From: an uncultured Candidatus Saccharibacteria bacterium
GTDB lineage: Bacteria; Patescibacteriota; Minisyncoccia; Minisyncoccales; GWA2-38-27
Length of the DNA: 64,000 nt
Direction of reading: 5' to 3'
NCBI GenBank assembly: GCA_964394985.1
Contig: CAYMZK010000004.1
Span: 12,746 to 76,745, forward strand
A program made the translations under genes and the position numbers. A model generated the notes under the pieces. That model searched no databases. It saw only the letters and a list, made by a program, of their open reading frames with translations, and was not told the DNA's origin. This document shows positions 4,463-57,575 of this stretch, piece by piece; within the stretch, counting starts at the first letter, position 1; each line of letters starts with the position of its first letter.

Positions 4463-5587
4463 ATGAAAAAGATATTTCTTGCGTTATTTTTTTTACTATT
4501 TGCTTTGCCGGTTTTTGCTCAAGAAGCAGATATAAATTTCTTTTATAGTCCAACTTGTCCTCATTGTCATGAAGAGCAAGCTTTTTTAGATGAGCTAGAA
4601 AAAGAATATCCAGATGTTACCGTTAATCGTTATTCAGTGACCGATAAAGAAAATGTTAAATTGCTAAAAGATTTTTATGATCGCTATGATGTTCCTGATC
4701 ACTACAAAGGAATGGTGCCGGCAACTTTTACTAGAGATAACTATTTTATTGGCTTTAATGACAATGTAGCTAAAGATATTGAGGATTGCTTTTTGCATTG
4801 TACTAAAGAGGATGTCTCTAAGGGAGAGGTTTCAGTTGTAGATATTGAGAGGAATATTACTGTTCCGATAATAGGAAATATTAATATAAAAAAATATTCT
4901 CTACCGGCTTTAGCGGTTATTTTGGGGACATTAGATGGTTTTAATGTTTGTTCTTTGGGTGCTTTAGTTTTGATTTTAGGACTTGTTTTAGCAATTAAGT
5001 CTCGTAAAAAGACTTTGCTTTTTGGCGGAATCTTTATTTTAACTACGGCAATTGTTTATGGTCTTTTAATTTTTATTTGGTATCAAGTATTTTCGTTCTT
5101 TTCTTCTTATTTAAAAATAATGCAGATTATTATTGGCTTAATAGGGATTATTGGCGGAATTTATTTTTTCAAACAATTTTTAAAGTATCGAAAATATGGT
5201 CCAACTTGTGAAGCTGGTGTTGGTAATGACTTGATTTCTAGATTCTCAAATAAATTTAAAAACTCTTTAAGCGAATCAAAAAATATCTTTTTATTAGCAT
5301 TAAGTATTCTTGTTTTTGCTGGCATTATTACTATTGTAGAATTTCCTTGTTCAGCGGTAGTTCCAGTTGCTTTTGCTGGAATATTGGCAGAGGCCAATCT
5401 TTCCGTTTTTTATTATTTGTTATATATAGTAATTTTTGTATTTTTCTATATGCTAGATGAGGTTGTCGTTTTTCTAATTGCTTTCTTTACTATGAAGGTT
5501 TGGTTAGCTTCAAATAAGGTGGTAACTTGGATAACTTTAATTGAAGCCATTGTTTTAATTGGCTTAGGTGTTTATTATTTATTATGA
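4463..5587 (+). CDS. thioredoxin-fold (CPHC) domain fused to a multi-pass CcdA/DsbD-like membrane domain
   Basis: Signal sequence, then FFYSPTCPHCHEEQAFL, then about 6 TM helices with the EFPCSAVVP motif. Confidence 0.65.
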   Translation: MKKIFLALFFLLFALPVFAQEADINFFYSPTCPHCHEEQAFLDELEKEYPDVTVNRYSVTDKENVKLLKDFYDRYDVPDHYKGMVPATFTRDNYFIGFNDNVAKDIEDCFLHCTKEDVSKGEVSVVDIERNITVPIIGNINIKKYSLPALAVILGTLDGFNVCSLGALVLILGLVLAIKSRKKTLLFGGIFILTTAIVYGLLIFIWYQVFSFFSSYLKIMQIIIGLIGIIGGIYFFKQFLKYRKYGPTCEAGVGNDLISRFSNKFKNSLSESKNIFLLALSILVFAGIITIVEFPCSAVVPVAFAGILAEANLSVFYYLLYIVIFVFFYMLDEVVVFLIAFFTMKVWLASNKVVTWITLIEAIVLIGLGVYYLL

Positions 5588-18172: not shown

Positions 18173-18318
18173 CACTTCGTGAGCTTATAATGTCTTAAAT
18201 TTTATATGTTTTGAGCTTTATTTCGAGTTCGAGGCACAGTATGTGATTTTTATCTTATTTATTTAATAAGAATAATTTCTTAATCTTAATTCTTACTTTG
18301 TTTTTTCTAAATATTCTG

Positions 18319-18628
18319 TCTAGGTTCAGATACATATGATACGCTCGCTCAGTTAATGTAATTAGGTTGCTCGGCTTGGCCGAGCAACCTAACGAGGAGC
18401 GTCTAGGTTCAGATAGATATTACACATCTGATTTTGTCCGATTGACCGGTCAATGGGACTATTTTTAGTATGAAGGTAGTATGAAGGTTGAACCTTCATA
18501 TATTGTGTTTTCATTGTTGTGCTCCACCTGGTGGAGCACAATGCTCCACCAGGTGGAGCACAATCGGGCGGAGCACTATGTTTTTCAAGGGGTTAGGTGT
18601 ATCATATCATATGGACCAGTACAAGCAC
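18319..18628 (+). repeat. modular multi-hairpin intergenic element, long copy (type B)
   Basis: Shares its ends and several modules with 57297-57470. Contains a 14-bp stem at 18362-18392, palindrome ATTGACCGGTCAAT at 18441-18454, hairpin ATGAAGGT-TGA-ACCTTCAT and tandem GTGCTCCACC/GGTGGAGCAC palindromes. Confidence 0.85.
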
Positions 18629-18756: not shown

Positions 18757-18843
18757 CGTGGACTCGGGCTCGTAGTTTTATGTAGTTAAAATTCTACCTT
18801 TGACACGTAGAGTAACGGGTGCAAATCCCGTCGAGTCCACGCA
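18757..18843 (+). ncRNA. tRNA-like structured RNA element (non-canonical)
   Basis: 10-bp perfect helix CGTGGACTCG (18757-18766) / CGAGTCCACG (18832-18841). It directly abuts a T-arm-like hairpin ACGGG-TGCAAAT-CCCGT (18815-18831). The D and anticodon regions do not fit a cloverleaf. Confidence 0.4.
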
Positions 18844-20054: not shown

Positions 20055-20087
20055 TTTTATTAAGCGTATAACGCTAATTTTTTAATT

Positions 20088-20498
20088 ATGCCTACAACAA
20101 GTCAATTAGTTAAAAAACCGAGAAAAAGCAAAAAGAAAAAGAACAAAGCTCCGGCTTTGGCCTTTGGCTTTAACGTATTGAAAAATAGACCAAAGAGATA
20201 TAATTCTCCTTTTAAGAGAGGAGTTTGTTTAAAGGTGTTTACGGTTACTCCTAAAAAACCTAACTCTGCTTTGAGAAAGGTTGCTAGAGTAAGATTGACC
20301 AACGGAATGGAGGTTACAGCCTACATCCCAGGAGAAGGACATAATTTACAAGAGCACTCCGTTGTTCTGTTGAGAGGAGGAAGAGTTAGAGATTTGCCGG
20401 GTGTTAGATACCATGTAGTCAGAGGAGCTTTAGACGCTGGGCCAGTAGATGGCCGAAAACAAGGAAGAAGCAAGTACGGCACCAAGAAACCTAAATAA
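20088..20498 (+). CDS. rpsL: 30S ribosomal protein S12
   Basis: [20 protein letters not shown]...[10 protein letters not shown]...[15 protein letters not shown] ~12-aa insertion lies near the N-terminus. Confidence 0.97.
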
Positions 20499-27541: not shown

Positions 27542-28024
27542 ATGAAAGTTCAAAGTCAGTTAAAATATTTAAGAATTGCACCAAGAAAGGTTAGATTAAT
27601 GGCCGATATGATTAGAGGGAAAAAAGTTGAGGAAGCTCAAACAGCTTTAAGCTTTACTGTTAAAAAGTCATCTGAGCCATTATTAAAACTTTTAAATACT
27701 GCTATTTCTGACGCAAAGAATAATTTTCAGTTAGACCCAAGTAATTTAATTATTTCTGAGATAAGGGTTGATGGCGGTCCAATATTAAAAAGATGGAGAG
27801 CTAGATCAAGAGGGATGGTGGCTCCGATCCAAAAGAAAACTTCCCATGTCACTGTAATTTTAAATGAAATAGAGGCTGGAAAAAGAATTAAAAAGAAAGA
27901 AGTTAAAAAAGAAGAAAAGGTAATTAAAGAAGAAAAACCCAAAACCAAAAGACCGGTAATTGAAACACCAAAGCCAAAATCATCTAAGGGATTAAAAAAG
28001 ATATTTAGAAGAAAATCCATATAA
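27542..28024 (+). CDS. rplV: 50S ribosomal protein L22 (Lys/Glu-rich C-terminal extension)
   Basis: LRIAPRKVRLMADMIRGKKVEEA...RWRARSRGMVAPIQKKTSH. Confidence 0.95.
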   Translation: MKVQSQLKYLRIAPRKVRLMADMIRGKKVEEAQTALSFTVKKSSEPLLKLLNTAISDAKNNFQLDPSNLIISEIRVDGGPILKRWRARSRGMVAPIQKKTSHVTVILNEIEAGKRIKKKEVKKEEKVIKEEKPKTKRPVIETPKPKSSKGLKKIFRRKSI

Positions 28025-28137
28025 AATGCCAATCTACAAATGATACGCAAATACTACGAATTTTCAGGAAAATTATTAATTATTTAAATTATTCGTATCA
28101 TTTGCATAAATTCGCATTAAATTAGCATTATAACACT
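28025..28137 (+). repeat. type A ~110-nt hairpin element, copy 1 (between rplV and rpsC)
   Basis: Near-identical to 31923-32039, with 4 substitutions. 11-bp stem CAAATGATACG (28037-28047) / CGTATCATTTG (28094-28104). Phased GCATWA triplet near the 3' end. Confidence 0.9.
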
Positions 28138-28782
28138 ATGTCACATAAAGTACACCCAAAAGCTTATAGAATTAAAGGATTAAGTGATTGGCAGTCACGG
28201 GGTTTTTATAATAATCCAGCTATTCAACTAGAAGAAGATTATAAAATAAGAGAATATTTAACTAGAAAATTAAAGAGTCTTGGCGTTGAAAAAATAGAGA
28301 TTGAAAGATATACCAACAAAATGAATATTATTATCTTTAGCTCTAGACCAGGATTAATTATTGGAAGAGGGGGTGAAGGAGTCGAAAAACTTAAACAAGA
28401 ACTAGAGAATAAGATTATTAGACCAACAAAAAGGAAGTTTGAATTAAGGTTAGAAATTAGAGAAATTAAAGATCCGTGGACTTCTGCTAGTTTAAGTGCT
28501 CAGTCTATTGCTCAGCAAATTGAAAAAAGAATGCCTTATCGAAGAGTGTTAAAGCAAGCCTTAAGTAAAATAATGACCCACAAAGAAATTAAAGGAGCTA
28601 GAATCCAAGTTTCTGGAAGATTAAATGGAGTAGAGATCGCTAGAAGAGAGTGGGTTGGAAAAGGTCAGCTTCCCCGTCAAACAATTAGAGCGGATATTGA
28701 TTATTACCAGGTCAACGCAGTTTGTTCTTATGGAGTGATTGGAGTAAAAGTTTGGATATATAAAGGTGAAAAATTTGAATAA
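28138..28782 (+). CDS. rpsC: 30S ribosomal protein S3
   Basis: MSHKVHPKAYRI...GRGGEGVEKLK (KH domain)...GRLNGVEIAR. Confidence 0.96.
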   Translation: MSHKVHPKAYRIKGLSDWQSRGFYNNPAIQLEEDYKIREYLTRKLKSLGVEKIEIERYTNKMNIIIFSSRPGLIIGRGGEGVEKLKQELENKIIRPTKRKFELRLEIREIKDPWTSASLSAQSIAQQIEKRMPYRRVLKQALSKIMTHKEIKGARIQVSGRLNGVEIARREWVGKGQLPRQTIRADIDYYQVNAVCSYGVIGVKVWIYKGEKFE

Positions 28783-31922: not shown

Positions 31923-32039
31923 AAAAAATGCCAATCTACAAATGATACGCAAATACTACGAATTTTCAGGAAAATTATTAATTATTTAAATTATTCGCAT
32001 CATTTGCATAAATTCGCATTACATTTGCATTATAACAAT
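31923..32039 (+). repeat. type A ~110-nt hairpin element, copy 2 (between rplF and rplR)
   Basis: Near-identical to 28025-28137, in the same orientation and the same position relative to the downstream ATG. Confidence 0.9.
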
Positions 32040-32360
32040 ATGTTAGAGAAAAAAGTTAAAAAAAATAGAAGACATAGAAGGGTTAGAGCTAAAATTAAAG
32101 GAACAGCTGAGATTCCAAGGCTTTGTATTTTTAGATCTAATAGGTATATTTATGCTCAAGCTATAAACGACGATAATGGTCAAACTTTAATGAGTGCTAA
32201 AGGAGAATTAACTAAGGCTAAAGATGTTGGTCAAATTATCGCCAAAAAGGCTTTAGAGAAAAACATTAAGAAAATAGTCTTTGATCGAGCTGGATATAAA
32301 TATCATGGTCGAGTTAAAGATTTGGCTGAAGGAGCTCGTGAAGCTGGATTAAATTTTTAA
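32040..32360 (+). CDS. rplR: 50S ribosomal protein L18
   Basis: [31 protein letters not shown]...[27 protein letters not shown] at 32040 is preferred; the track start lies in the repeat. Confidence 0.95.
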
Positions 32361-39766: not shown

Positions 39767-41000
39767 TATCATGCCACCGGGAAAAAAAATAGAACCAGTG
39801 GAGACAAATCCTCAAGAAGAGATTTCTCTAAAGGTTAAAACCCCCGGAAAAAAAAGAAAATGGATTATTGGTTTAGTTGTCTTTCTTCTTTTAGTCGGAG
39901 TTTCTCTTTGGGTTTCTTTTGCTTTTTCTGAAGTCAAAATAGCTATTTTTCCTAAATTAGATAAAGTGGCTTTAACTGAGACAGTAACGGTTAAACTAGA
40001 CTCTTCTTTGGATTTAGAAAATAATATTATTCCTGGTCAAAAGGTAGATAATGAAAAGATTTTAGCTCAAGATTTTCAGGCTACCGGGAAGGCGACCAAA
40101 GAAGCCAAAGCTACGGGAACAATTACAGTATACAATGCTTATTCCTCAACTCCAAGAACTTTTATTCCTTCTCGTTTTGTTTCAGCCGATGGCAAATTGT
40201 TTTGGTCAACTGAAAAAATTAGCGTGCCTGGATATACTAAAGAGGGGAATAAAGTTATTCCTGGAGAGGTTCAAGTCCCTGTTATTGCTAGTGAAGCTGG
40301 GCCAGAGTATAATATAGAGGCGACTACTTTTGCTATGCCGGGATTAGCTGGAACAGCTCTTTATACCACTATTTATGCTAAGTCTTTTGAGCCGATGACT
40401 GGTGGCTATATTGGTGAGTCAAGAAAGATTACAGAATCAGATTTAGAAAATGCTAAAAATGTCTTAATTGATAAGACCAAAGTTGAGGGTAAAGAGATTT
40501 TAAAAAAATCTTTACCCTTAGATCTTGTTCTTCTTGAAGAAACTTTAACTCAAGAAGTTTTAGAAGGTAAGTTTTCTCATTCATTGAGTGACGAAGTGGA
40601 TAATTTTAATTATGAAGTAAAGGTTAGATCTGAAGGGGTTGCTTTTAGTCGGTTAGATATAGAATTATTAGCTAAAGAAAGAATTAATTCAATAATTGAT
40701 AAAGATAAAACAATTAAAAAGGACAGTTTTAAGATAGAGTATAATTTAAAGGAAGTTAGTCCTGATGAAATGACTATTGAAATAGTTTTTAGTGTTGATG
40801 TATATACTGATATTAACTTAGAAGAAGCTAGAAAGGCTGTTACGGGGAAGTCTTTAGAGGAAACCTCTTTATTTTTAAAGTCCTTGTCTGGAATAGAAAA
40901 GGTTAAAATAGATAAAGGTAGCTTTATGCGAAGAAGCGTTCCAAGCTCTTTAGATAAAGTGAAAATCGATCTAATACTTGACCCCGCAGAAGAAATTTGA
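39747..41000 (+). CDS. hypothetical membrane-anchored protein (N-terminal TM, large extracytoplasmic domain)
   Basis: MPKKFYDIMPPGKK, then a TM helix, then a beta-rich domain. The last 5 codons and the stop lie inside the repeat element at 40982-41057. Confidence 0.5.
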   Translation: MPKKFYDIMPPGKKIEPVETNPQEEISLKVKTPGKKRKWIIGLVVFLLLVGVSLWVSFAFSEVKIAIFPKLDKVALTETVTVKLDSSLDLENNIIPGQKVDNEKILAQDFQATGKATKEAKATGTITVYNAYSSTPRTFIPSRFVSADGKLFWSTEKISVPGYTKEGNKVIPGEVQVPVIASEAGPEYNIEATTFAMPGLAGTALYTTIYAKSFEPMTGGYIGESRKITESDLENAKNVLIDKTKVEGKEILKKSLPLDLVLLEETLTQEVLEGKFSHSLSDEVDNFNYEVKVRSEGVAFSRLDIELLAKERINSIIDKDKTIKKDSFKIEYNLKEVSPDEMTIEIVFSVDVYTDINLEEARKAVTGKSLEETSLFLKSLSGIEKVKIDKGSFMRRSVPSSLDKVKIDLILDPAEEI

Positions 41001-41057
41001 TTTAGATTTTTTTAAAAAAATCTAAACTGTGGAACAGATCAAATTTTCTCTGCGGGG
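40982..41057. mobile_element. short (76-bp) member of the CCCCGYAGA-TIR MITE-like family
   Basis: TIRs CCCCGCAGAAGAAATTTGAT / ATCAAATTTTCTCTGCGGGG, flanked by TTGA on both sides. Internal palindrome TTTAGATTTTTTT/AAAAAAATCTAAA. Confidence 0.7.
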
Positions 41058-47372: not shown

Positions 47373-47510
47373 CCCCGTAGAGAAATTTCAATACATTCGC
47401 TGTAAGCGAATAAAAGAATACGGGGAATAATAAAGTATAATTAATAAATAGAAAAACAAACATAAGAATTTCAAGAAAGATGAGCAAACTAATTGAAATT
47501 CTTCTACGGG
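47373..47510 (+). mobile_element. CCCCGYAGA-TIR MITE-like element, full-length copy 1 (upstream of murA)
   Basis: Differs from 52208-52346 by 2 substitutions and 1 terminal nt. TIRs CCCCGTAGAGAAATTTCAAT / ATTGAAATTCTTCTACGGG. Flanked by ACATG (47368-47372) and ACATG (47511-47515). Confidence 0.8.
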
Positions 47511-47512
47511 AC

Positions 47513-48790
47513 ATGGAAGAAAAATTTATCATCAAAGGAGGAATTCCTTTAAAGGGAGAAGTAGGAGTAAGAGGAGCTAAAAATGCCGCCTTTCCAATTT
47601 TGGCCGCTTCTTTACTAACCAAAGAAACTTGCACTATAGATAATTTACCTTTAATAGAAGATGTCTTAAAGATGATCAGGATTTTAGAAAATATGGGTGC
47701 TGAGATTTCTTGGGTTGGCAAAAGAAAAATAGAAATAAATTGTTCTAAGATAAAGCCTTCTAAAACACCTTATGATTTAGTAAAATGTTTTCGAGGCTCT
47801 GTTTTGTTGTTGGGGGGATTGTTGGGAAGATTTAATAATGTTAGAATTCCTAAGCCAGGAGGTTGTGTTATTGGTTCTCGTCCAATTGATACTCATCTAG
47901 ATGCTTTTGATCAGTTAGGGATAAAGATTCACAAAACAGGCCAGTTTTACAATTTTAAAAAGAATAAAGATAATAATTCTAAAGAAGTTGTTTTAAAAGA
48001 AATTAGCGTTACGGCCACTGAAAACGTTTTACTCTATGCCACTAGTAACTCTAAACAAAAAACAACTCTTAAAATAGCCGATCAAGACTATCAAGTTCAG
48101 GATTTAATTAGGGTGTTAGAGAAAATGGGAGCTAGTATTAAGAATACCGGGATTAGGGAATACGAAATAACTGGTAAAAACAACTTAAAGGGTTTTAGTC
48201 ATAGTATTGTTAATGACCCTATTGAGGCCGGAACTTTCATTGTTGCGGCTTTAGCTACTAATGGAGAAGTTTTGGTTAAAAATGCCGAGTTGCAATATTT
48301 AGACTTGTTTCTAAAAAGATTAAAAGATTTTGGCGCAAAGTATAAAGTGATAGACGCAAAGACAATAAAAGTTTTACCTTCTAAAAAAGATTTAAAAATA
48401 GACAAAATTCAAAGCTTGCCTTATCCAGGAATTCACTCAGATCTTCAGCCGGAATTAGGGGTATTAGCTACTCAAACTAAAGGACCGACAATGATTCATG
48501 ATCCGCTTTTTGAAGGAAGATTAAGATATTTAAATGAGTTAAACAAAATGGGAGCTGATATCATTTTTTGTGATCCTCATAGAGCGATTGTTTATGGTCC
48601 TACTAAACTTCAGGGAGCTAATATCCCAAGTTTAGACTTAAGAGCAGGAGCAGCAGTGATTATTGCCGGTTTGATTGCTAAAGGTACGACTAATATAAAT
48701 AATATTTATCAAATTGATAGGGGTTATGAAAAAATAGAAGAACGTCTTAGTGATTTGGGGGCTGATGTTAAAAGGAGAATTAAAAAGTAA
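47513..48790 (+). CDS. murA: UDP-N-acetylglucosamine 1-carboxyvinyltransferase
   Basis: MEEKFIIKGG..LKGEVGVRGAKNAAFPILAASLL aligns to the MurA N-terminus (MDKFRVQG...ISGAKNAALPIL). The track start at 47480 lies inside the repeat. Confidence 0.93.
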   Translation: MEEKFIIKGGIPLKGEVGVRGAKNAAFPILAASLLTKETCTIDNLPLIEDVLKMIRILENMGAEISWVGKRKIEINCSKIKPSKTPYDLVKCFRGSVLLLGGLLGRFNNVRIPKPGGCVIGSRPIDTHLDAFDQLGIKIHKTGQFYNFKKNKDNNSKEVVLKEISVTATENVLLYATSNSKQKTTLKIADQDYQVQDLIRVLEKMGASIKNTGIREYEITGKNNLKGFSHSIVNDPIEAGTFIVAALATNGEVLVKNAELQYLDLFLKRLKDFGAKYKVIDAKTIKVLPSKKDLKIDKIQSLPYPGIHSDLQPELGVLATQTKGPTMIHDPLFEGRLRYLNELNKMGADIIFCDPHRAIVYGPTKLQGANIPSLDLRAGAAVIIAGLIAKGTTNINNIYQIDRGYEKIEERLSDLGADVKRRIKK

Positions 48791-48792
48791 TT

Positions 48793-49803
48793 ATGTTAAA
48801 GAAGAAAATAGGTATTGATCTGGGAACTTGTAACTCCATCGTTTTTACTCCTCAAAAGGGAGTGGTTTTAAGCGATCCTTCGGTTGTAGCAGTAAGTTTA
48901 GATGACAACAGAATTTTAGCAGTTGGTAAAGAAGCCAAGGAAATGACTGGTAGAACACCGGACACCATTAGAATTTATCGCCCCTTAAAAGACGGCGTTA
49001 TTGCTGATTATCGAGTAACTGAAGCAATGATTAGGTATTTTGTTAAAAGCGCCGGATCTAAATTTCGTTTTTTAAAGCCAGAGTTATTAGTAGGAGTCCC
49101 AGCCGGAATTACTTCTACTGAAAAAAGAGCAGTGATTGAAGCGGGAATGGCTGCTGGCGCCAAAGGAGTTTATGTTGCCAAAGAGCCGGTTTTAGCGGCT
49201 ATTGGAGCTGGTATTCCTATTAATTCTTGCTCTGGTCATATGATTGTAGATATCGGCGGGGGAACTGCTGAAGTGGCCGTTATTTCTTTGGGTGGAATAG
49301 TTACAGCTAAATCTTTAAGAGTGGCTGGAGACAAAATGGATAGAGCTATTTCAGAATACATTAAAAAGAAGTATAATTTAGTTGTTGGAGAGCAAACGGC
49401 GGAAGAAGTTAAAATTAAAATCGGGACTGCTGTTCCGGAAAAAACTCCAAGAGAAATTGAGATTAGAGGAAGAGATATGATTTCTGGCTTGCCTCAAAAC
49501 ATTAAGGTTAATTCTAATGAGGTTTGTGAGGCGATATCAGAAAGACTTTCAGATATCGTTCAAACCGTTAAAGAGGTTTTGAGAGACACGCCACCAGAGT
49601 TGTCGGCTGATATTATGGACAAGGGAATGATTATCTCTGGAGGCGGAGCTTTAGTTAGAAATATTGACGAACTAATTGCTGAATCAACTGGCGTCCCCTG
49701 CTTTATAGCCGAAGATCCCTTGCTTTGTGTTGCCAAGGGAACCGGAGCGGTATTGGACAACCTTGAAGCTTACAAAAAGAGCATAATGTCAAAAAGAAAA
49801 TAA
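48793..49803 (+). CDS. mreB: rod-shape protein MreB (paralog 1)
   Basis: IGIDLGTCNS...DGVIADY...VDIGGGTAEVAVISLGG...GGGALV. Confidence 0.93.
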   Translation: MLKKKIGIDLGTCNSIVFTPQKGVVLSDPSVVAVSLDDNRILAVGKEAKEMTGRTPDTIRIYRPLKDGVIADYRVTEAMIRYFVKSAGSKFRFLKPELLVGVPAGITSTEKRAVIEAGMAAGAKGVYVAKEPVLAAIGAGIPINSCSGHMIVDIGGGTAEVAVISLGGIVTAKSLRVAGDKMDRAISEYIKKKYNLVVGEQTAEEVKIKIGTAVPEKTPREIEIRGRDMISGLPQNIKVNSNEVCEAISERLSDIVQTVKEVLRDTPPELSADIMDKGMIISGGGALVRNIDELIAESTGVPCFIAEDPLLCVAKGTGAVLDNLEAYKKSIMSKRK

Positions 49804-51139: not shown

Positions 51140-52207
51140 ATGACAATTGTTATTGCAATAATATCTCTAATCTTTTTAATAATTTTTCATGAATTAGGCC
51201 ATTTTCTTTTTGCTAAAAAGTTTGGCGTTAGAGTAGATGAGTTTGGGATTGGCTATCCGCCTAGGGTTTGGGGTAAAAAGATTGGAGAAACTCTTTATTC
51301 TATCAACCTTCTTCCTTTAGGGGGGTTTGTTAAGATTTATGGTCATGAGGAAAGAATTGAAGAATCAGATAGTTTTACCACTAAGCCTTTTTGGCAGAAA
51401 TCTATAATCATTTTAGCGGGAGTGGCTGTTTTTTGGGTAATTGCCGCTATTTTATTAAGTGTAGTCGTCTATATCGGTGCTCCCTCAGCTATTAGTGATA
51501 ATGAAGTAACTGGATTTCAAGATCCTAAGGTTCAAATAATTAGTATTGCTGACAGCTCTCCAGCTTCAGGGTCTAATTTAAAAGTGGGAGATATCATTAA
51601 ATCAATTAATGATCAAGAAATAGATAAAGTTTATCAGGTTCAAAATTTAGTTTCTGAAAATAAAGGAGAAGAGATTATTTTAACTGTTCAAAGAGGACAA
51701 AAGTTAGAAGATATTAAAATAACTCCTCGCTTAGATTATCCTCAAGAAGAGGGCTCTATGGGGGTGGGTCTATTAAGAACCGGGCTGAAAAAAACAGTTT
51801 GGTATAAGGCGCCAGTTAAAGGAGTAGAGGCAACCGTTAATTTAACCAAAGCAGTTGTTGGTGGTTGGATAATTACTATAAAAGGATTAGTTCAGAACGG
51901 TGAACTTCCAGCTGGAGTAGAGGTGAAGGGTCCTATTGGAATATTTGAGCTTTTTAATAACTTTGGCGGATTGGGTGTTAGTTATTTTTTGCAATTTGTA
52001 GCCGTAATTGCTATTTCTTTGGCTTTAATTAATATTTTACCAATTCCTGCTCTAGATGGTGGTTGGTTTTTGTTCTTGGTTATTGAAAAAATAATAGGAA
52101 GACCATTGAATCAAAAATGGGTCCAAAATATTAGTGTCTTTTTCTTCTTTCTGTTAATTTTATTGTTAATTTGGGTAACTGTAAAAGATGTAATCGGGCT
52201 ATTATGA
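51140..52207 (+). CDS. rseP: RIP metalloprotease RseP (M50 with PDZ)
   Basis: HELGHF, central PDZ (GDIIKSINDQEI) and NILPIPALDGG. The TGA stop lies within the left TATGA repeat. Confidence 0.9.
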   Translation: MTIVIAIISLIFLIIFHELGHFLFAKKFGVRVDEFGIGYPPRVWGKKIGETLYSINLLPLGGFVKIYGHEERIEESDSFTTKPFWQKSIIILAGVAVFWVIAAILLSVVVYIGAPSAISDNEVTGFQDPKVQIISIADSSPASGSNLKVGDIIKSINDQEIDKVYQVQNLVSENKGEEIILTVQRGQKLEDIKITPRLDYPQEEGSMGVGLLRTGLKKTVWYKAPVKGVEATVNLTKAVVGGWIITIKGLVQNGELPAGVEVKGPIGIFELFNNFGGLGVSYFLQFVAVIAISLALINILPIPALDGGWFLFLVIEKIIGRPLNQKWVQNISVFFFFLLILLLIWVTVKDVIGLL

Positions 52208-52346
52208 CCCCGTAGAGAAATTTCAATACATTCGCTGAAAGCGAATAAAAGAATACGGGGAATAATAAAGTATAATTAATAAATAGAAAAACAAATATAA
52301 GAATTTCAAGAAAGATGAGCAAACTAATTGAAATTCTTCTACGGGG
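52208..52346 (+). mobile_element. CCCCGYAGA-TIR MITE-like element, full-length copy 2 (between rseP and proS)
   Basis: TIRs CCCCGTAGAGAAATTTCAAT / ATTGAAATTCTTCTACGGGG. Flanked by TATGA (52203-52207) and TATGA (52347-52351). Confidence 0.85.
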
Positions 52347-52347
52347 T

Positions 52348-53538
52348 ATGAGACAATCAAATCTTTTTTACAAAAGCTTAAAAGAAACACCTAAGGATGC
52401 TGAGGCCATTTCTCACATCCTTTTGTTAAGAGCCGGCTTTATTGATCAAACAGCAGCCGGAATTTTTAGTTTTTTACCTTTAGGATTAAAGGTTTTAAAA
52501 AACATTGAAGAGATTATTAGAGAAGAAATGGAAGCTGTTGGTGGTCAAGAAATTTTAATGCCGGCCTTAACTCCAAAGGAAAATTGGGATAAAACTGGAA
52601 GATGGGACGCTTTTGATGTTTTGTTCAAGTTAAAAGGAGGAAACAAAAAAGAGTATGCTTTGGGTCCAACTCACGAAGAAATAATTTCTCCCTTGGTAAA
52701 AAAACATATTTTATCGTATAAAGACTTGCCTTTTTCTTTGTTTCAAATTCAAACTAAATTTAGAAATGAATTAAGAGCCAAATCCGGGCTTTTAAGAACA
52801 AGAGAGTTTTTAATGAAAGATCTTTATTCTTTTCATATTGACCAGAAAGATCTAGATAACTATTACGAGAAAGTTGCCAAAGTTTACTTTGGGATTTTTA
52901 AAAGATGCGGATTGAAGGTGTATAAGACTCTAGCTTCTGGTGGTAGTTTTTCTAAATATTCTCATGAATATCAGGTAATAACTGGAGCTGGTGAAGATGT
53001 AATTTATCTTTGTGATAAATGCGGAATAGCTATAAACAAAGAAATAAAAGAGAAGAAGTGTCCTGAATGTGGCGGGACTAAATTTAAAGAAACTAAAGGA
53101 ATAGAGGTGGGAAACATTTTCAAATTAAAAGATAAATATTCTCTTCCTTTCCAACTAACCTTTAAAGACAAAGATGGTAAAGAAAAACCAGTTTTAATGG
53201 GTTGTTATGGAATTGGTCTAAGTCGAGTATTAGCCGCTATAGTTGAAACCAATAATGATGAGAATGGAATTATTTGGCCAAAAGAAGTAGCTCCTTTTGA
53301 TATTCATTTAATTTCTTTGAATAACATTAAGGCCGATAAAATTTATTCTAAATTAATTAAAGAAGGAAAAAGAGTGTTATACGATGATAGAAAAGAAGTT
53401 AGCGCTGGTCAAAAATTAGCCGAAGCTGATTTAATTGGAATTCCGGAAAGATGGGTGGTGAGCAAGAAGACTTTAGCTAAAAAATCAGTTGAAATTAAAA
53501 AAAGAAATCAAAAGAAAGTAAAATTGACAAAGATCTAG
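52348..53538 (+). CDS. proS: prolyl-tRNA synthetase, bacterial-type N-terminus, INS editing domain absent (396 aa)
   Basis: MRQSNLFYKSLKETPKDAE aligns to ProRS MRTSQYLLSTLKETPADAE. FRNELRAKSGLLRTREFLMKDLYSF. A CDKC...CPEC knuckle sits where INS normally lies. The track start at 52315 lies in the repeat. Confidence 0.9.
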   Translation: MRQSNLFYKSLKETPKDAEAISHILLLRAGFIDQTAAGIFSFLPLGLKVLKNIEEIIREEMEAVGGQEILMPALTPKENWDKTGRWDAFDVLFKLKGGNKKEYALGPTHEEIISPLVKKHILSYKDLPFSLFQIQTKFRNELRAKSGLLRTREFLMKDLYSFHIDQKDLDNYYEKVAKVYFGIFKRCGLKVYKTLASGGSFSKYSHEYQVITGAGEDVIYLCDKCGIAINKEIKEKKCPECGGTKFKETKGIEVGNIFKLKDKYSLPFQLTFKDKDGKEKPVLMGCYGIGLSRVLAAIVETNNDENGIIWPKEVAPFDIHLISLNNIKADKIYSKLIKEGKRVLYDDRKEVSAGQKLAEADLIGIPERWVVSKKTLAKKSVEIKKRNQKKVKLTKI

Positions 53539-54000: not shown

Positions 54001-55053
54001 ATGTTAGATAAACTTTTTTCATATATTTCTCATAATATTGCTATAGACTTAGGAACTGCCAACTCTCTTGTCTATGTTCAAGGCAAGGGCATCGTCATAA
54101 ATGAGCCCTCCGTTGTTGCCGTAAACCAAAAAACAGGACAGGTTTTGGCTATTGGTGAAGAGGCTAAAAGAATGGTTGGCAGAACACCAGCTCATATTGT
54201 CGCTACTCGTCCTTTGGTGGATGGTGTGGTTTCAGACTTTGAAGTTACTGAGCAAATGCTTAAATACTTTATTGAAAAAGTTCACAAAAGAAAGTTTCTT
54301 TTAGGTCCTCGGCCAAGAGTTATTGTTGGAATACCTTATGGCGTTACCGAAGTAGAAAAAAAGGCTGTAAAGGACGCAGCTAGAAATGCTGGAGCCAGGG
54401 AGGTGTTTTTAATTGAAGAGCCGATGGCGGCAGCCATTGGCTCTCGACTAGCAGTTCAAGAAGCTGGTGGTAATTTCATAATTGATATTGGAGGAGGAAC
54501 AACCGAGGTCGCTGTTATTTCTCTTGGAGGAGTAGTTTTGGCTAAGAGCTTAAGAGTGGCTGGCGATAAGTTAAATGAGGACATCGTTCGTTTTGCTCAA
54601 AACGAGTATAAGTTGCTGATTGGTGAAAGAGCGGCAGAAAGTGCTAAAATAGGAATAGGATCGGCTTATCCTTTAAAAGAAAAAAGAGAATTACCATTAA
54701 GGGGTAGAAATATTGTTACTGGTTTGCCAGAAGAAATTTTAGTCAATGACGAAGGAATTAGAAAGGCGATGCAAAAGTCAGTTAAGCAAATAGTTACGGC
54801 AATAAAAACTACTGTTGAAGAAACTCCACCAGAACTGTTGGCTGATATTATGGCCAAGGGAATCTTTTTGTGTGGCGGTGGCAGCCTTTTGAAAGGATTA
54901 GATATTTTAATTCAAGAAGAGGTTAAGATTCCAGTTAAAATTATTGAAGATCCAATGACGGCGGTGGTTAGAGGAGCTGGGGTGGTTTTAGAAAATATCG
55001 ATCAGTTATCAGAAACCTTAACTGAAACCGAGGAATTAGCTCCTCCTAAATAA
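54001..55053 (+). CDS. mreB: rod-shape protein MreB (paralog 2)
   Basis: IAIDLGTANS...DGVVSDF...IDIGGGTTEVAVISLGG...CGGGSLL. Confidence 0.92.
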   Translation: MLDKLFSYISHNIAIDLGTANSLVYVQGKGIVINEPSVVAVNQKTGQVLAIGEEAKRMVGRTPAHIVATRPLVDGVVSDFEVTEQMLKYFIEKVHKRKFLLGPRPRVIVGIPYGVTEVEKKAVKDAARNAGAREVFLIEEPMAAAIGSRLAVQEAGGNFIIDIGGGTTEVAVISLGGVVLAKSLRVAGDKLNEDIVRFAQNEYKLLIGERAAESAKIGIGSAYPLKEKRELPLRGRNIVTGLPEEILVNDEGIRKAMQKSVKQIVTAIKTTVEETPPELLADIMAKGIFLCGGGSLLKGLDILIQEEVKIPVKIIEDPMTAVVRGAGVVLENIDQLSETLTETEELAPPK

Positions 55054-57287: not shown

Positions 57288-57296
57288 AGAACTCTA

Positions 57297-57470
57297 TCTA
57301 GGTTCAGATACATATGATACGCTCAGTTAATTTATTACGTTTGGTAACTGGGTTGCTCGGCTTGGCCGAGCAACCCTGGGACTATTTTTAGTATGAAGGT
57401 TGAACCTTCATATATTGTGCTTCAAGGGTCTTTTGGTGTATCATATCATATGGACCACCAGTACAAGAAC
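57297..57470 (+). repeat. modular multi-hairpin intergenic element, short copy (type B)
   Basis: Collinear with 18319-18628 minus three inserted modules. Closing helix CATATGATAC (57311-57320) / GTATCATAT (57438-57446). Confidence 0.85.
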
Positions 57471-57504: not shown

Positions 57505-57575
57505 TGCGGGGTGGAGAAGTAGTATCTTGTGAGGCCCATAACCTCAAGACGCGGGTGCAATTCCCGCCCCCGCAA
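57505..57575 (+). tRNA. tRNA-Met(CAT), initiator-like, with atypical D- and T-loops; no encoded CCA
   Basis: Cloverleaf folded by hand. Acceptor TGCGGGG/CCCCGCA, D-stem GAGA/TCTT (A11:T24), anticodon loop CCCATAA, T-arm GCGGG-TGCAATT-CCCGC. Resembles E. coli tRNA-fMet ends (CGCGGGGTGGAG...CCCCCGCAA). Confidence 0.7.

Follow-up and report, generated by a model that had tools for sequence, protein, structure and literature searches.

A probable family of miniature inverted-repeat transposable elements at start codons of Patescibacteria genes

Introduction

Bacterial MITEs, or miniature inverted-repeat transposable elements, are generally shorter than 200 bp, reach up to ~400 bp, carry terminal inverted repeats (TIRs), are bordered by a target duplication and contain no transposase gene (Delihas, 2011; PMC3184786). 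Here, we describe a 139-bp element at the junction between rseP and proS in a 64,000-nucleotide stretch of DNA from an uncultured bacterium recorded as Candidatus Saccharibacteria (assembly GCA_964394985.1, contig CAYMZK010000004.1, positions 12,746–76,745 of the forward strand). This whole stretch is referred to as the window, and coordinates without a contig label are positions in it. The proS element is very probably a copy of a MITE family, non-coding and 139–146 bp long, that is present in a clade of Patescibacteria (Parcubacteria, near Nealsonbacteria). In the literature searched, we found no description of a MITE in Patescibacteria or the candidate phyla radiation (CPR).

Several described repeat families approach this one in structure or position. 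The Correia elements of Neisseria (CREE, nemis), which are MITEs of ~104–157 bp, often lie 5' of genes and are co-transcribed with them (PMC3184786), and their hairpins, as far as the primary studies are cited in that review, are RNase III substrates that affect the mRNA level (De Gregorio, 2002; Siddique, 2011). The 139-bp family resembles them in its small size, TIRs, target duplication, lack of a transposase gene, location 5' of genes and long RNA hairpin. Correia elements, however, duplicate TA, have 26-bp TIRs of unrelated sequence and carry measurable promoters and an IHF site. The family described here instead duplicates 4–5 bp containing the start codon (TATG, CATG, TGAA or TATGA), stands flush with the ATG in a single orientation, shows no consensus promoter and resides in a Patescibacterium. 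Membership in Correia/CREE was rejected because the duplication is not TA and no consensus promoter was found.

The REP2 (CREN) repeats of Neisseria and the IR repeats of Borrelia lie directly upstream of open reading frames (ORFs), form stem–loops near the 5' end and have a start codon at their 3' edge (PMC3184786). They lack TIRs and themselves supply promoter, ribosome-binding site and ATG, whereas in the 139-bp family the ATG comes from the duplicated target and is already present in empty sites, the duplication is variable, no ribosome-binding site is used and no promoter is recognisable. A gene-start cassette of the REP2/CREN type was therefore rejected on the presence of TIRs and on the ATG belonging to the target. 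ERIC (IRU) sequences and the YPAL elements of Yersinia are imperfect palindromes of ~127–168 bp in transcribed regions, and their orientation-dependent folding alters mRNA fate (PMC3184786); unlike the 139-bp family, they have TA flanks, occur in either orientation, and tend to lie 3' of genes or between cistrons and not on start codons. A further likeness is to Rickettsia palindromic elements (RPEs), small palindromes that are tolerated in or at the edge of essential genes with the frame kept, as the in-frame ATG of the 139-bp element would add 11 residues to MurA and ProS. RPEs, however, are translated as internal in-frame peptides, whereas the 139-bp element is not part of the ancestral ORF, and before its last 23–27 codons every frame is interrupted by stops. 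IS200/IS605-derived elements have no TIRs, cause no target duplication and insert 3' of a fixed tetra- or pentanucleotide; a palindrome of this type was rejected because of the TIRs and the variable duplicated flanks on both sides, and an integron attC site was rejected on end structure and duplications.

We regard the 139-bp family as a new MITE family, which can be likened to Correia and ERIC elements in its workings and to REP2 and Borrelia IR repeats in its position, and is a member of neither. No other family is known to us in which all copies sampled stand at a start codon restored by the element's target duplication.

The element at the rseP–proS junction

Read directly from the sequence, the element spans positions 52208–52346 and is flanked on each side by TATGA (52203–52207 and 52347–52351, + strand). 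The left TATGA holds the TGA stop codon (52205–52207) on which the upstream ORF terminates, that of an rseP-like M50 protease gene (51140–52207, + strand; PF02163 in the syntenic genes). The right TATGA holds the native ATG (52348–52350) of proS, which starts MRQSNLFYKSLKETPKDAE (MRQSNLFYK...) and encodes a prolyl-tRNA synthetase of 396 aa counted from this codon (52348–53538, + strand). Both reading frames, with their stop and start codons, are intact at the element junctions. The left TIR, CCCCGTAGAGAAATTTCAAT (52208–52227, + strand), is invariant in 9/9 aligned copies; together with the right TIR, ATTGAAATTCTTCTACGGGG (52327–52346, + strand), it forms arms of 20 nt that are complementary at 18/20 positions, the exceptions being G·T and A/C at positions 10–11. 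The TIRs are conserved throughout the family, including this imperfection.

An earlier, sequence-only reading of the window had described the 139-bp element, its imperfect 20-nt TIRs, the TATGA flanks and the distribution of the rseP stop and proS ATG between them, and had interpreted the whole as the insertion of a MITE. The described features were all read again directly, and the interpretation is supported by the TIRs, the duplications, the dispersed copies and the empty orthologous sites. Two details needed refinement. The duplication is 5 bp at proS, as had been stated, while the norm in the family is 4 bp, with 5 bp as the long variant. The reading had also placed the insertion in an ancestral ATGA stop/start overlap, and eight other junctions that it cited for such overlaps (2523, 5584, 12750, 14880, 29941, 30243, 37301 and 58625) do read ATGA. 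Deleting the element plus one TATGA yields this overlap, but sampled relatives have TAA, 4–19 nt and then ATG, without overlap. The ancestral ATGA is a reconstruction, and a weaker one than had been proposed.

Copies in the window and in metagenomes

When the window was searched with the TIR 20-mer, allowing up to three mismatches, four matches were obtained, compared with 0.02 expected from shuffled sequences. They correspond to both ends of two copies, the proS element and a second one at 47373–47511 (+ strand), which is 97–98% identical to it and flush with the murA start ATG at 47513. The murA copy is flanked by CATG/CATG, or by ACATG/ACATG if the last base of the element is assigned to the flank. 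Metagenome contigs were scanned with the degenerate TIR CCCCGTAGARRAATTTCAAT, a search blind to position relative to genes. Complete elements were found at six additional insertion sites, of which one is present on two contigs (L009 and L011). The genes downstream are rpsO (contig L004), rpsL (L005), a gene for a 123-aa membrane protein (L006), murA (L007, at the same site as in L028–L031), rplY (L009/L011) and ftsZ (L013). The long copies, 139–146 bp in length, thus occupy eight sites at seven different genes. Identity between copies is 98%, 97% and 92% within genomes and 70–90% between genomes. All frames contain stops, the longest open stretch being 23–27 codons.

Duplicated flanks of 4 or 5 bp are present at 8/8 long copies. 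They read TATG/TATG in L004, L006, L007 and L009 and TGAA/TGAA in L013, where the last G of the element together with TG rebuilds the GTG start of ftsZ; in L005 they are imperfect, with TATA on the left and TATG on the right. The search for further TIRs that the sequence-only reading had proposed thus turned up copies before genes unrelated to one another, all of them bordered by a duplication, and copies lacking duplications were not seen. The size, the TIRs, the flanking duplication (at the eight long copies and at both of the short ones described below), the lack of a transposase gene, the dispersed presence and absence and the long stem–loop are those of bacterial MITEs. Since all defining features are present, with only a cognate transposase, which is usual for MITEs but not obligatory, not found in the sequence searched, we assign the family to this class.

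Neither 5.5 kb of added sequence, by which the source contig was extended via its edge proteins, nor Rfam, in which both the window copies and six related loci were without a match (E ≤ 1 or 0.5), yielded anything further, and exact-protein look-ups of RseP and of the database protein P0001 returned no record. The remaining hits of the metagenome scan were chance matches. Three contigs among them with a single TIR match were considered as ends of autonomous insertion sequences and rejected: L008 and L012 are GC-rich Chloroflexi contigs, and L010 is an unrelated contig of 38–54% GC without a transposase. A Logan short-read contig (L031, 1–101) starts inside the element, 100 nt before murA; such a break is expected, since the element is repeated in that genome.

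Empty orthologous sites

By its ProS and MurA homologues, the contig belongs to Patescibacteria, near proteins named Nealsonbacteria and Staskawiczbacteria. In five related lineages (L014, L015/L022, L016–L018 and L019 contigs), the proS site is empty, with the gene order murA–mreB–holB–frr–rseP–proS retained, a gap of 4–19 nt between rseP and proS, and a ProS that begins MKQS or MRQS. The sequence-only reading had asked for such empty sites and had named conservation of the 139 nt at this junction across distant lineages as evidence against an insertion; the element is absent from the junction in every relative sampled. As the 139 nt are not conserved there, they are not a vertically inherited leader.

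The duplication can be seen directly at rpsL. Here, the TATG at the rpsL start in the window (20087–20090, + strand) is an empty target site that is filled in metagenome contig L005, the window reading ...ttaattATGcct and the contig ...ttaattATA[E]TATGccc, where [E] stands for the element. The murA site is empty in L019 and in the genome that encodes the MurA protein P0125, and it is filled in the window lineage and in that of protein P0123, whose MurA sequences are 82% identical. The P0125 genome is the closest relative of the filled P0123 genome (90% MurA identity), and the upstream flanks of the two can be aligned. Therefore, proS, murA and rpsL each occur both filled and empty among relatives. 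With murA filled twice and the closest relative of one filled lineage empty, either two independent insertions or one old insertion followed by precise losses would account for the pattern.

Two odd MurA N-termini (P0126 and P0144) were considered as effects of the element and rejected: a mis-called TTG start accounts for one, and an in-frame insertion of 63 nt for the other. The 63-nt insertion, in murA of another lineage, directly follows codon 5 (L032, 1516–1578; MEEKF-NSRLYDYSLTNQGSRAKREVL-IIKGG), and its sequence is unrelated to the 139-bp element.

Start-codon context and orientation

All eight long copies have the same orientation relative to the downstream gene, and their right end lies 0–1 nt from its start codon. 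The window has 33% G+C and is ~91% coding. A Shine–Dalgarno (SD)-like tetramer precedes 8/82 of its genes, compared with a background of 17%, and 50 of the 82 starts read TATG in an A/T-rich context (for example at 4463, 39089, 45245, 50579 and 53560). Several strong promoters in the window have their -10 box 6–7 nt before the ATG, which implies leaderless mRNAs. The genome thus seems to use SD sequences hardly at all, and leaderless mRNAs seem to be common. Among the long copies, leaderless-promoter contexts are found at murA, ftsZ, rplY and the L006 gene, where 6 nt separate the -10 box from the duplicated ATG. The leader of rpsL is ~38 nt long, and the proS copy is at a junction within an operon, without a promoter of its own. 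Since rpsL is leadered and proS is intra-operonic, the common factor is the start-codon context and not the transcription start, and insertion targeted to the transcription starts of leaderless genes was rejected on these two cases.

Counted on both strands, the window contains 477 TATG tetramers, 50 of them at starts, 378 in coding sequence and 48 in intergenic sequence. When six A/T bases are required in front (W6-TATG), 20 are at starts, 31 in coding and 4 in intergenic sequence. Most insertion sites have A/T-rich upstream flanks. A preference for A/T-rich sequence ending in TATG, the loss of intragenic insertions and the rescue of the start by the duplication are together enough to explain the start-codon bias.

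RNA folding and start-codon use

The RNA of the element is a long hairpin, with a predicted energy of -31 kcal/mol (z = -6.2) for the proS copy and a range of -31 to -41.5 kcal/mol in the family. Within it, an internal hairpin, ATTCGCT-GAA-AGCGAAT (52230–52246, + strand), has four pairs with compensatory changes, and its stems elsewhere in the family differ in sequence yet remain self-complementary (CCCGCC/GGCGGG, CATCCGCC/GGCGGATG and CATTTTTCT/GGAAAAATG). Two internal motifs are invariant. TACGGGG (52254–52260, + strand) offers a second partner for the 5' terminal CCCCGTA and would close an alternative 5' domain, and AAGAATTTCAA (52299–52309, + strand), a third copy of the TIR core, can pair with UUGAAAUUCUU in the 3' arm. 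The alternative 3' hairpin formed through AAGAATTTCAA is predicted to leave CUACGGGG-U-AUG unpaired. This two-domain fold is the predicted minimum free energy (MFE) structure in L011 and lies within 5–7 kcal/mol of the MFE in the other copies.

Opening of the start region (-12 to +12) is predicted to cost 8.6–17 kcal/mol with the element, compared with 0.5–5.5 kcal/mol in reconstructed empty sites. When the element is inverted in silico, the start is occluded more than in the natural orientation in six of the eight copies; the lower occlusion in the natural orientation is possibly a reason for the orientation bias.

The element also carries an ATG in frame with proS (52315–52317, + strand), which gives the extension MSKLIEILLRGM and is restricted to the subfamily of the source genome; its counterpart in the murA copy is at 47480. 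In the ORF track, proS and murA consequently share the N-terminus MSKLIEILLR(G/D)M, with 11 added residues, and this extension is also found in public protein sets, in the entries P0001 (407 aa) and P0121 (436 aa). Both the in-frame ATG and the shared N-terminus had been pointed out before and are real. The N-terminus had been called artefactual; it is non-ancestral and lineage-specific, with other subfamilies lacking this ATG, and its status as an artefact is unproven. With the rebuilt ATG at a constant distance of 1 nt from the end of the element, the presence of an in-frame internal ATG in both copies amounts to one coincidence and not two. The internal AUG lies in an unpaired part of the fold and the native AUG abuts the 20-bp stem, so that the internal AUG could be used.

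In four loci, no consensus sigma-70 promoter or intrinsic terminator was found inside the element on either strand, only AT-rich hexamers resembling a -10 box. An outward promoter in the element was rejected for want of a consensus -35/-10 pair, and an antisense intrinsic terminator was rejected as the cause of the orientation bias, with none flagged by the consensus scan. Most likely, transcription reads through the element from the native promoter or from rseP. No RNase III signature motif was found in the sequence fragments examined, a result that is uninformative because the sequence is partial.

Short elements and other repeats

Two shorter elements of 72–76 bp share ~13 terminal nt and the G·T and A/C imperfection at positions 10–11 with the long family. 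In the 76-bp one in the window (40982–41057), the TIR core (CCCCGCAG...CTGCGGGG) is that of the long family, the arms show compensatory changes (T>C and A>G), and the flanks are TTGA/TTGA. It lies 4 nt before the stop of an upstream 417-aa ORF, whose end changes from ...LD* to ...LDPAEEI*, and the -35 box of the infA promoter, TTGACT, is restored by its duplication. The second is found in L013 (11773–11844). Both are flanked as TTGA-element-TTGAC, rebuilding a -35 box, and they are oppositely oriented relative to the promoter that they abut.

A second, unrelated repeat family of ~119 nt occurs in the window at 28023–28141 and 31925–32043. Its two copies are 97% identical, have no obvious TIR and contain an internal inverted repeat (AAATGATACG/CGTATCATTT) and three TT(T/C/A)GCAT motifs at 11-nt spacing. 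They begin directly after an ATG and end exactly on the TATG starts of ribosomal-protein genes of the S10/spc cluster (MSHKVHPK..., 28138; MLEKKVKK..., ~32041), a second case of a start-flush repeat in the same genome. The native upstream regions of rpsO and rpsL (L004, 1–112; L005, 1100–1230) contain repeated palindromic motifs resembling ATTTGCAT/TTATGCAAA, which recall the TTNGCAT motifs of the 119-nt repeats and could be a shared operator. Another repeated segment lies upstream of tRNA genes (18315–18480, before tRNA-Ser at 18766; 57293–57400, before tRNA-Met at 57505) and holds TCTAGGTTCAGATACATATGATACGCTC and a strong hairpin, GGTTGCTCGGC-TTG-GCCGAGCAACC. Finally, two mreB paralogues 5.2 kb apart (48793–49803 and 54001–55053) contain stretches of 73–79% identical DNA, and the syntenic loci of related lineages show this duplication as well.

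Discussion

The data are best explained by a MITE family whose copies persist where its preferred target coincides with a start codon. A transposase supplied in trans would make a staggered cut at an A/T-rich ...T-A-T-G target, which in a genome without SD sequences coincides with the consensus context of translation starts. Intragenic insertions would be lost, and those at start codons would survive because the duplication leaves an intact ATG (GTG in ftsZ) at the right end, while the left end keeps the stop codon of the upstream gene (rseP) or a promoter-proximal ATG. The downstream gene would then be transcribed across the element, from its original upstream promoter or by read-through from rseP, and the element would become a structured leader. 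As the TIR stem is predicted to bury the start region at equilibrium, it would have to be opened, and three routes can be envisaged. The alternative two-domain fold may be kinetically trapped during transcription; the base of the stem, where the left duplicate faces the real start across the helix, may be melted by ribosomes ending (rseP) or beginning (leaderless ATG) translation at that duplicate; or RNase III may cut the stem, as in the nemis/Correia hairpins of Neisseria.

Several points weigh against this explanation. The window and ~250 kb of related loci yielded neither a cognate transposase nor an autonomous element with matching ends. A TIR scan of genome contigs gave three single chance matches (a Clostridia metagenome-assembled genome, a Chloroflexi contig and a Saprospiraceae CRISPR array), and a scan of viral contigs gave none. 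The duplication is not uniform in length, with an imperfect left copy in L005, and the two lineages with a filled murA site are not each other's closest relatives, which demands a hotspot or precise losses. The single orientation in 8/8 copies is not predicted by a cut-and-paste DDE mechanism; being unexplained by it, the bias is attributed to selection. The whole element is conserved at 70–90% where murA DNA is only 75% identical, and its internal hairpin covaries, which together suggest a constraint beyond transposition. Finally, the steps of read-through, stem opening and RNase III cleavage are all inferred from sequence.

Some of these observations are what would be expected if the element were a domesticated mobile leader, a view that is compatible with a transposon origin and that we consider unlikely, if worth weighing. 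The leader would be an RNA switch whose two near-isoenergetic folds bury or expose the start, giving co-ordinated translational control of housekeeping genes (murA, proS, ftsZ and those for S12, S15 and L25) without SD sequences. The single orientation of copies that are all flush with start codons, the pairing of the internal hairpin kept by compensatory changes, the three invariant internal and terminal motifs that permit the two-domain fold (MFE in L011), and the lesser occlusion of the start in the natural orientation all point in this direction. So do 3' hairpin variants that are G·U-compatible on the sense strand only, an element conservation as high as that of the adjacent coding gene, and targets that are mostly highly expressed essential genes. 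However, the nearest relatives with an empty site evidently express the same genes, there is neither conservation resembling a ligand pocket nor an Rfam match, and the start region is strongly occluded in both folds at equilibrium. The sample is also small (eight sites and four covarying pairs), and the A/T-rich TATG preference combined with selection already accounts for the position.

A bolder version, which seems to us a shade more doubtful, would see in the family not merely a parasite that is tolerated but a mobile, self-inserting 5' leader that turns leaderless or translationally coupled housekeeping genes of SD-less Patescibacteria into genes whose start codon is gated by an RNA switch. 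The TIR stem would alternate with the two-domain fold, with RNase III or ribosomes at the left duplicate opening it, and the start-codon context would direct the insertion, the same genes, such as murA, being hit repeatedly.

It is improbable that the bias is purely mechanistic, with the transposition machinery recognising a feature of the start region such as an extended start-context motif or a promoter-proximal DNA structure. Such start-site-directed integration would agree with the location of 8/8 copies at start codons, with murA having been hit in two lineages while a sister lineage is empty, and with the four sites at which the -10 box lies exactly 6 nt before the duplicated ATG, placing the insertion at +3/+4 of a leaderless start. 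The leadered rpsL (~38 nt) and the promoterless, intra-operonic proS speak against a promoter feature and leave the ATG context as the shared factor, and translation cannot be sensed by DNA transposition. In addition, the 72–76-bp elements with the same ends sit at TTGA in -35 boxes, and each of the two orientations with respect to the promoter occurs among them.

A vertically inherited cis-regulatory leader or attenuator of proS, T-box-like or of the riboswitch kind and without any insertion, is scarcely tenable. A highly structured element directly upstream of an aminoacyl-tRNA synthetase gene would suit it, but the empty sites in all related lineages sampled already refute it. In addition, murA is preceded by an almost identical copy and unrelated genes by diverged ones, and flanking duplications are present. 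On the absence from rseP–proS in these relatives and the lack of an Rfam match, any described cis-regulatory RNA (riboswitch, T-box or ribosomal-protein leader) was likewise rejected. An assembly artefact, with a repeat collapsed or mis-joined in the metagenome-assembled contig, has a negligible chance of being correct: repeats do break short-read assemblies, as at the start of the Logan contig L031, but assemblies of four independent origins (ENA, two JGI samples and Logan) show the same filled murA site and flanks, and the reading frames with their stop and start codons are intact at the junctions.

Read as a MITE family, these elements have practical as well as biological consequences. They break short-read assemblies and corrupt gene calls, the database proteins of the source contig carrying an 11-residue N-terminus that is false or at least non-ancestral. 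They also pose a puzzle, in that folding predictions place the starts of essential genes (murA, proS, ftsZ and those for S12, S15 and L25) inside a 20-bp stem, in a host without SD sequences. The family illustrates a way for a selfish element to survive in a streamlined, ~91% coding genome, by using the start-site consensus of its host as a target.

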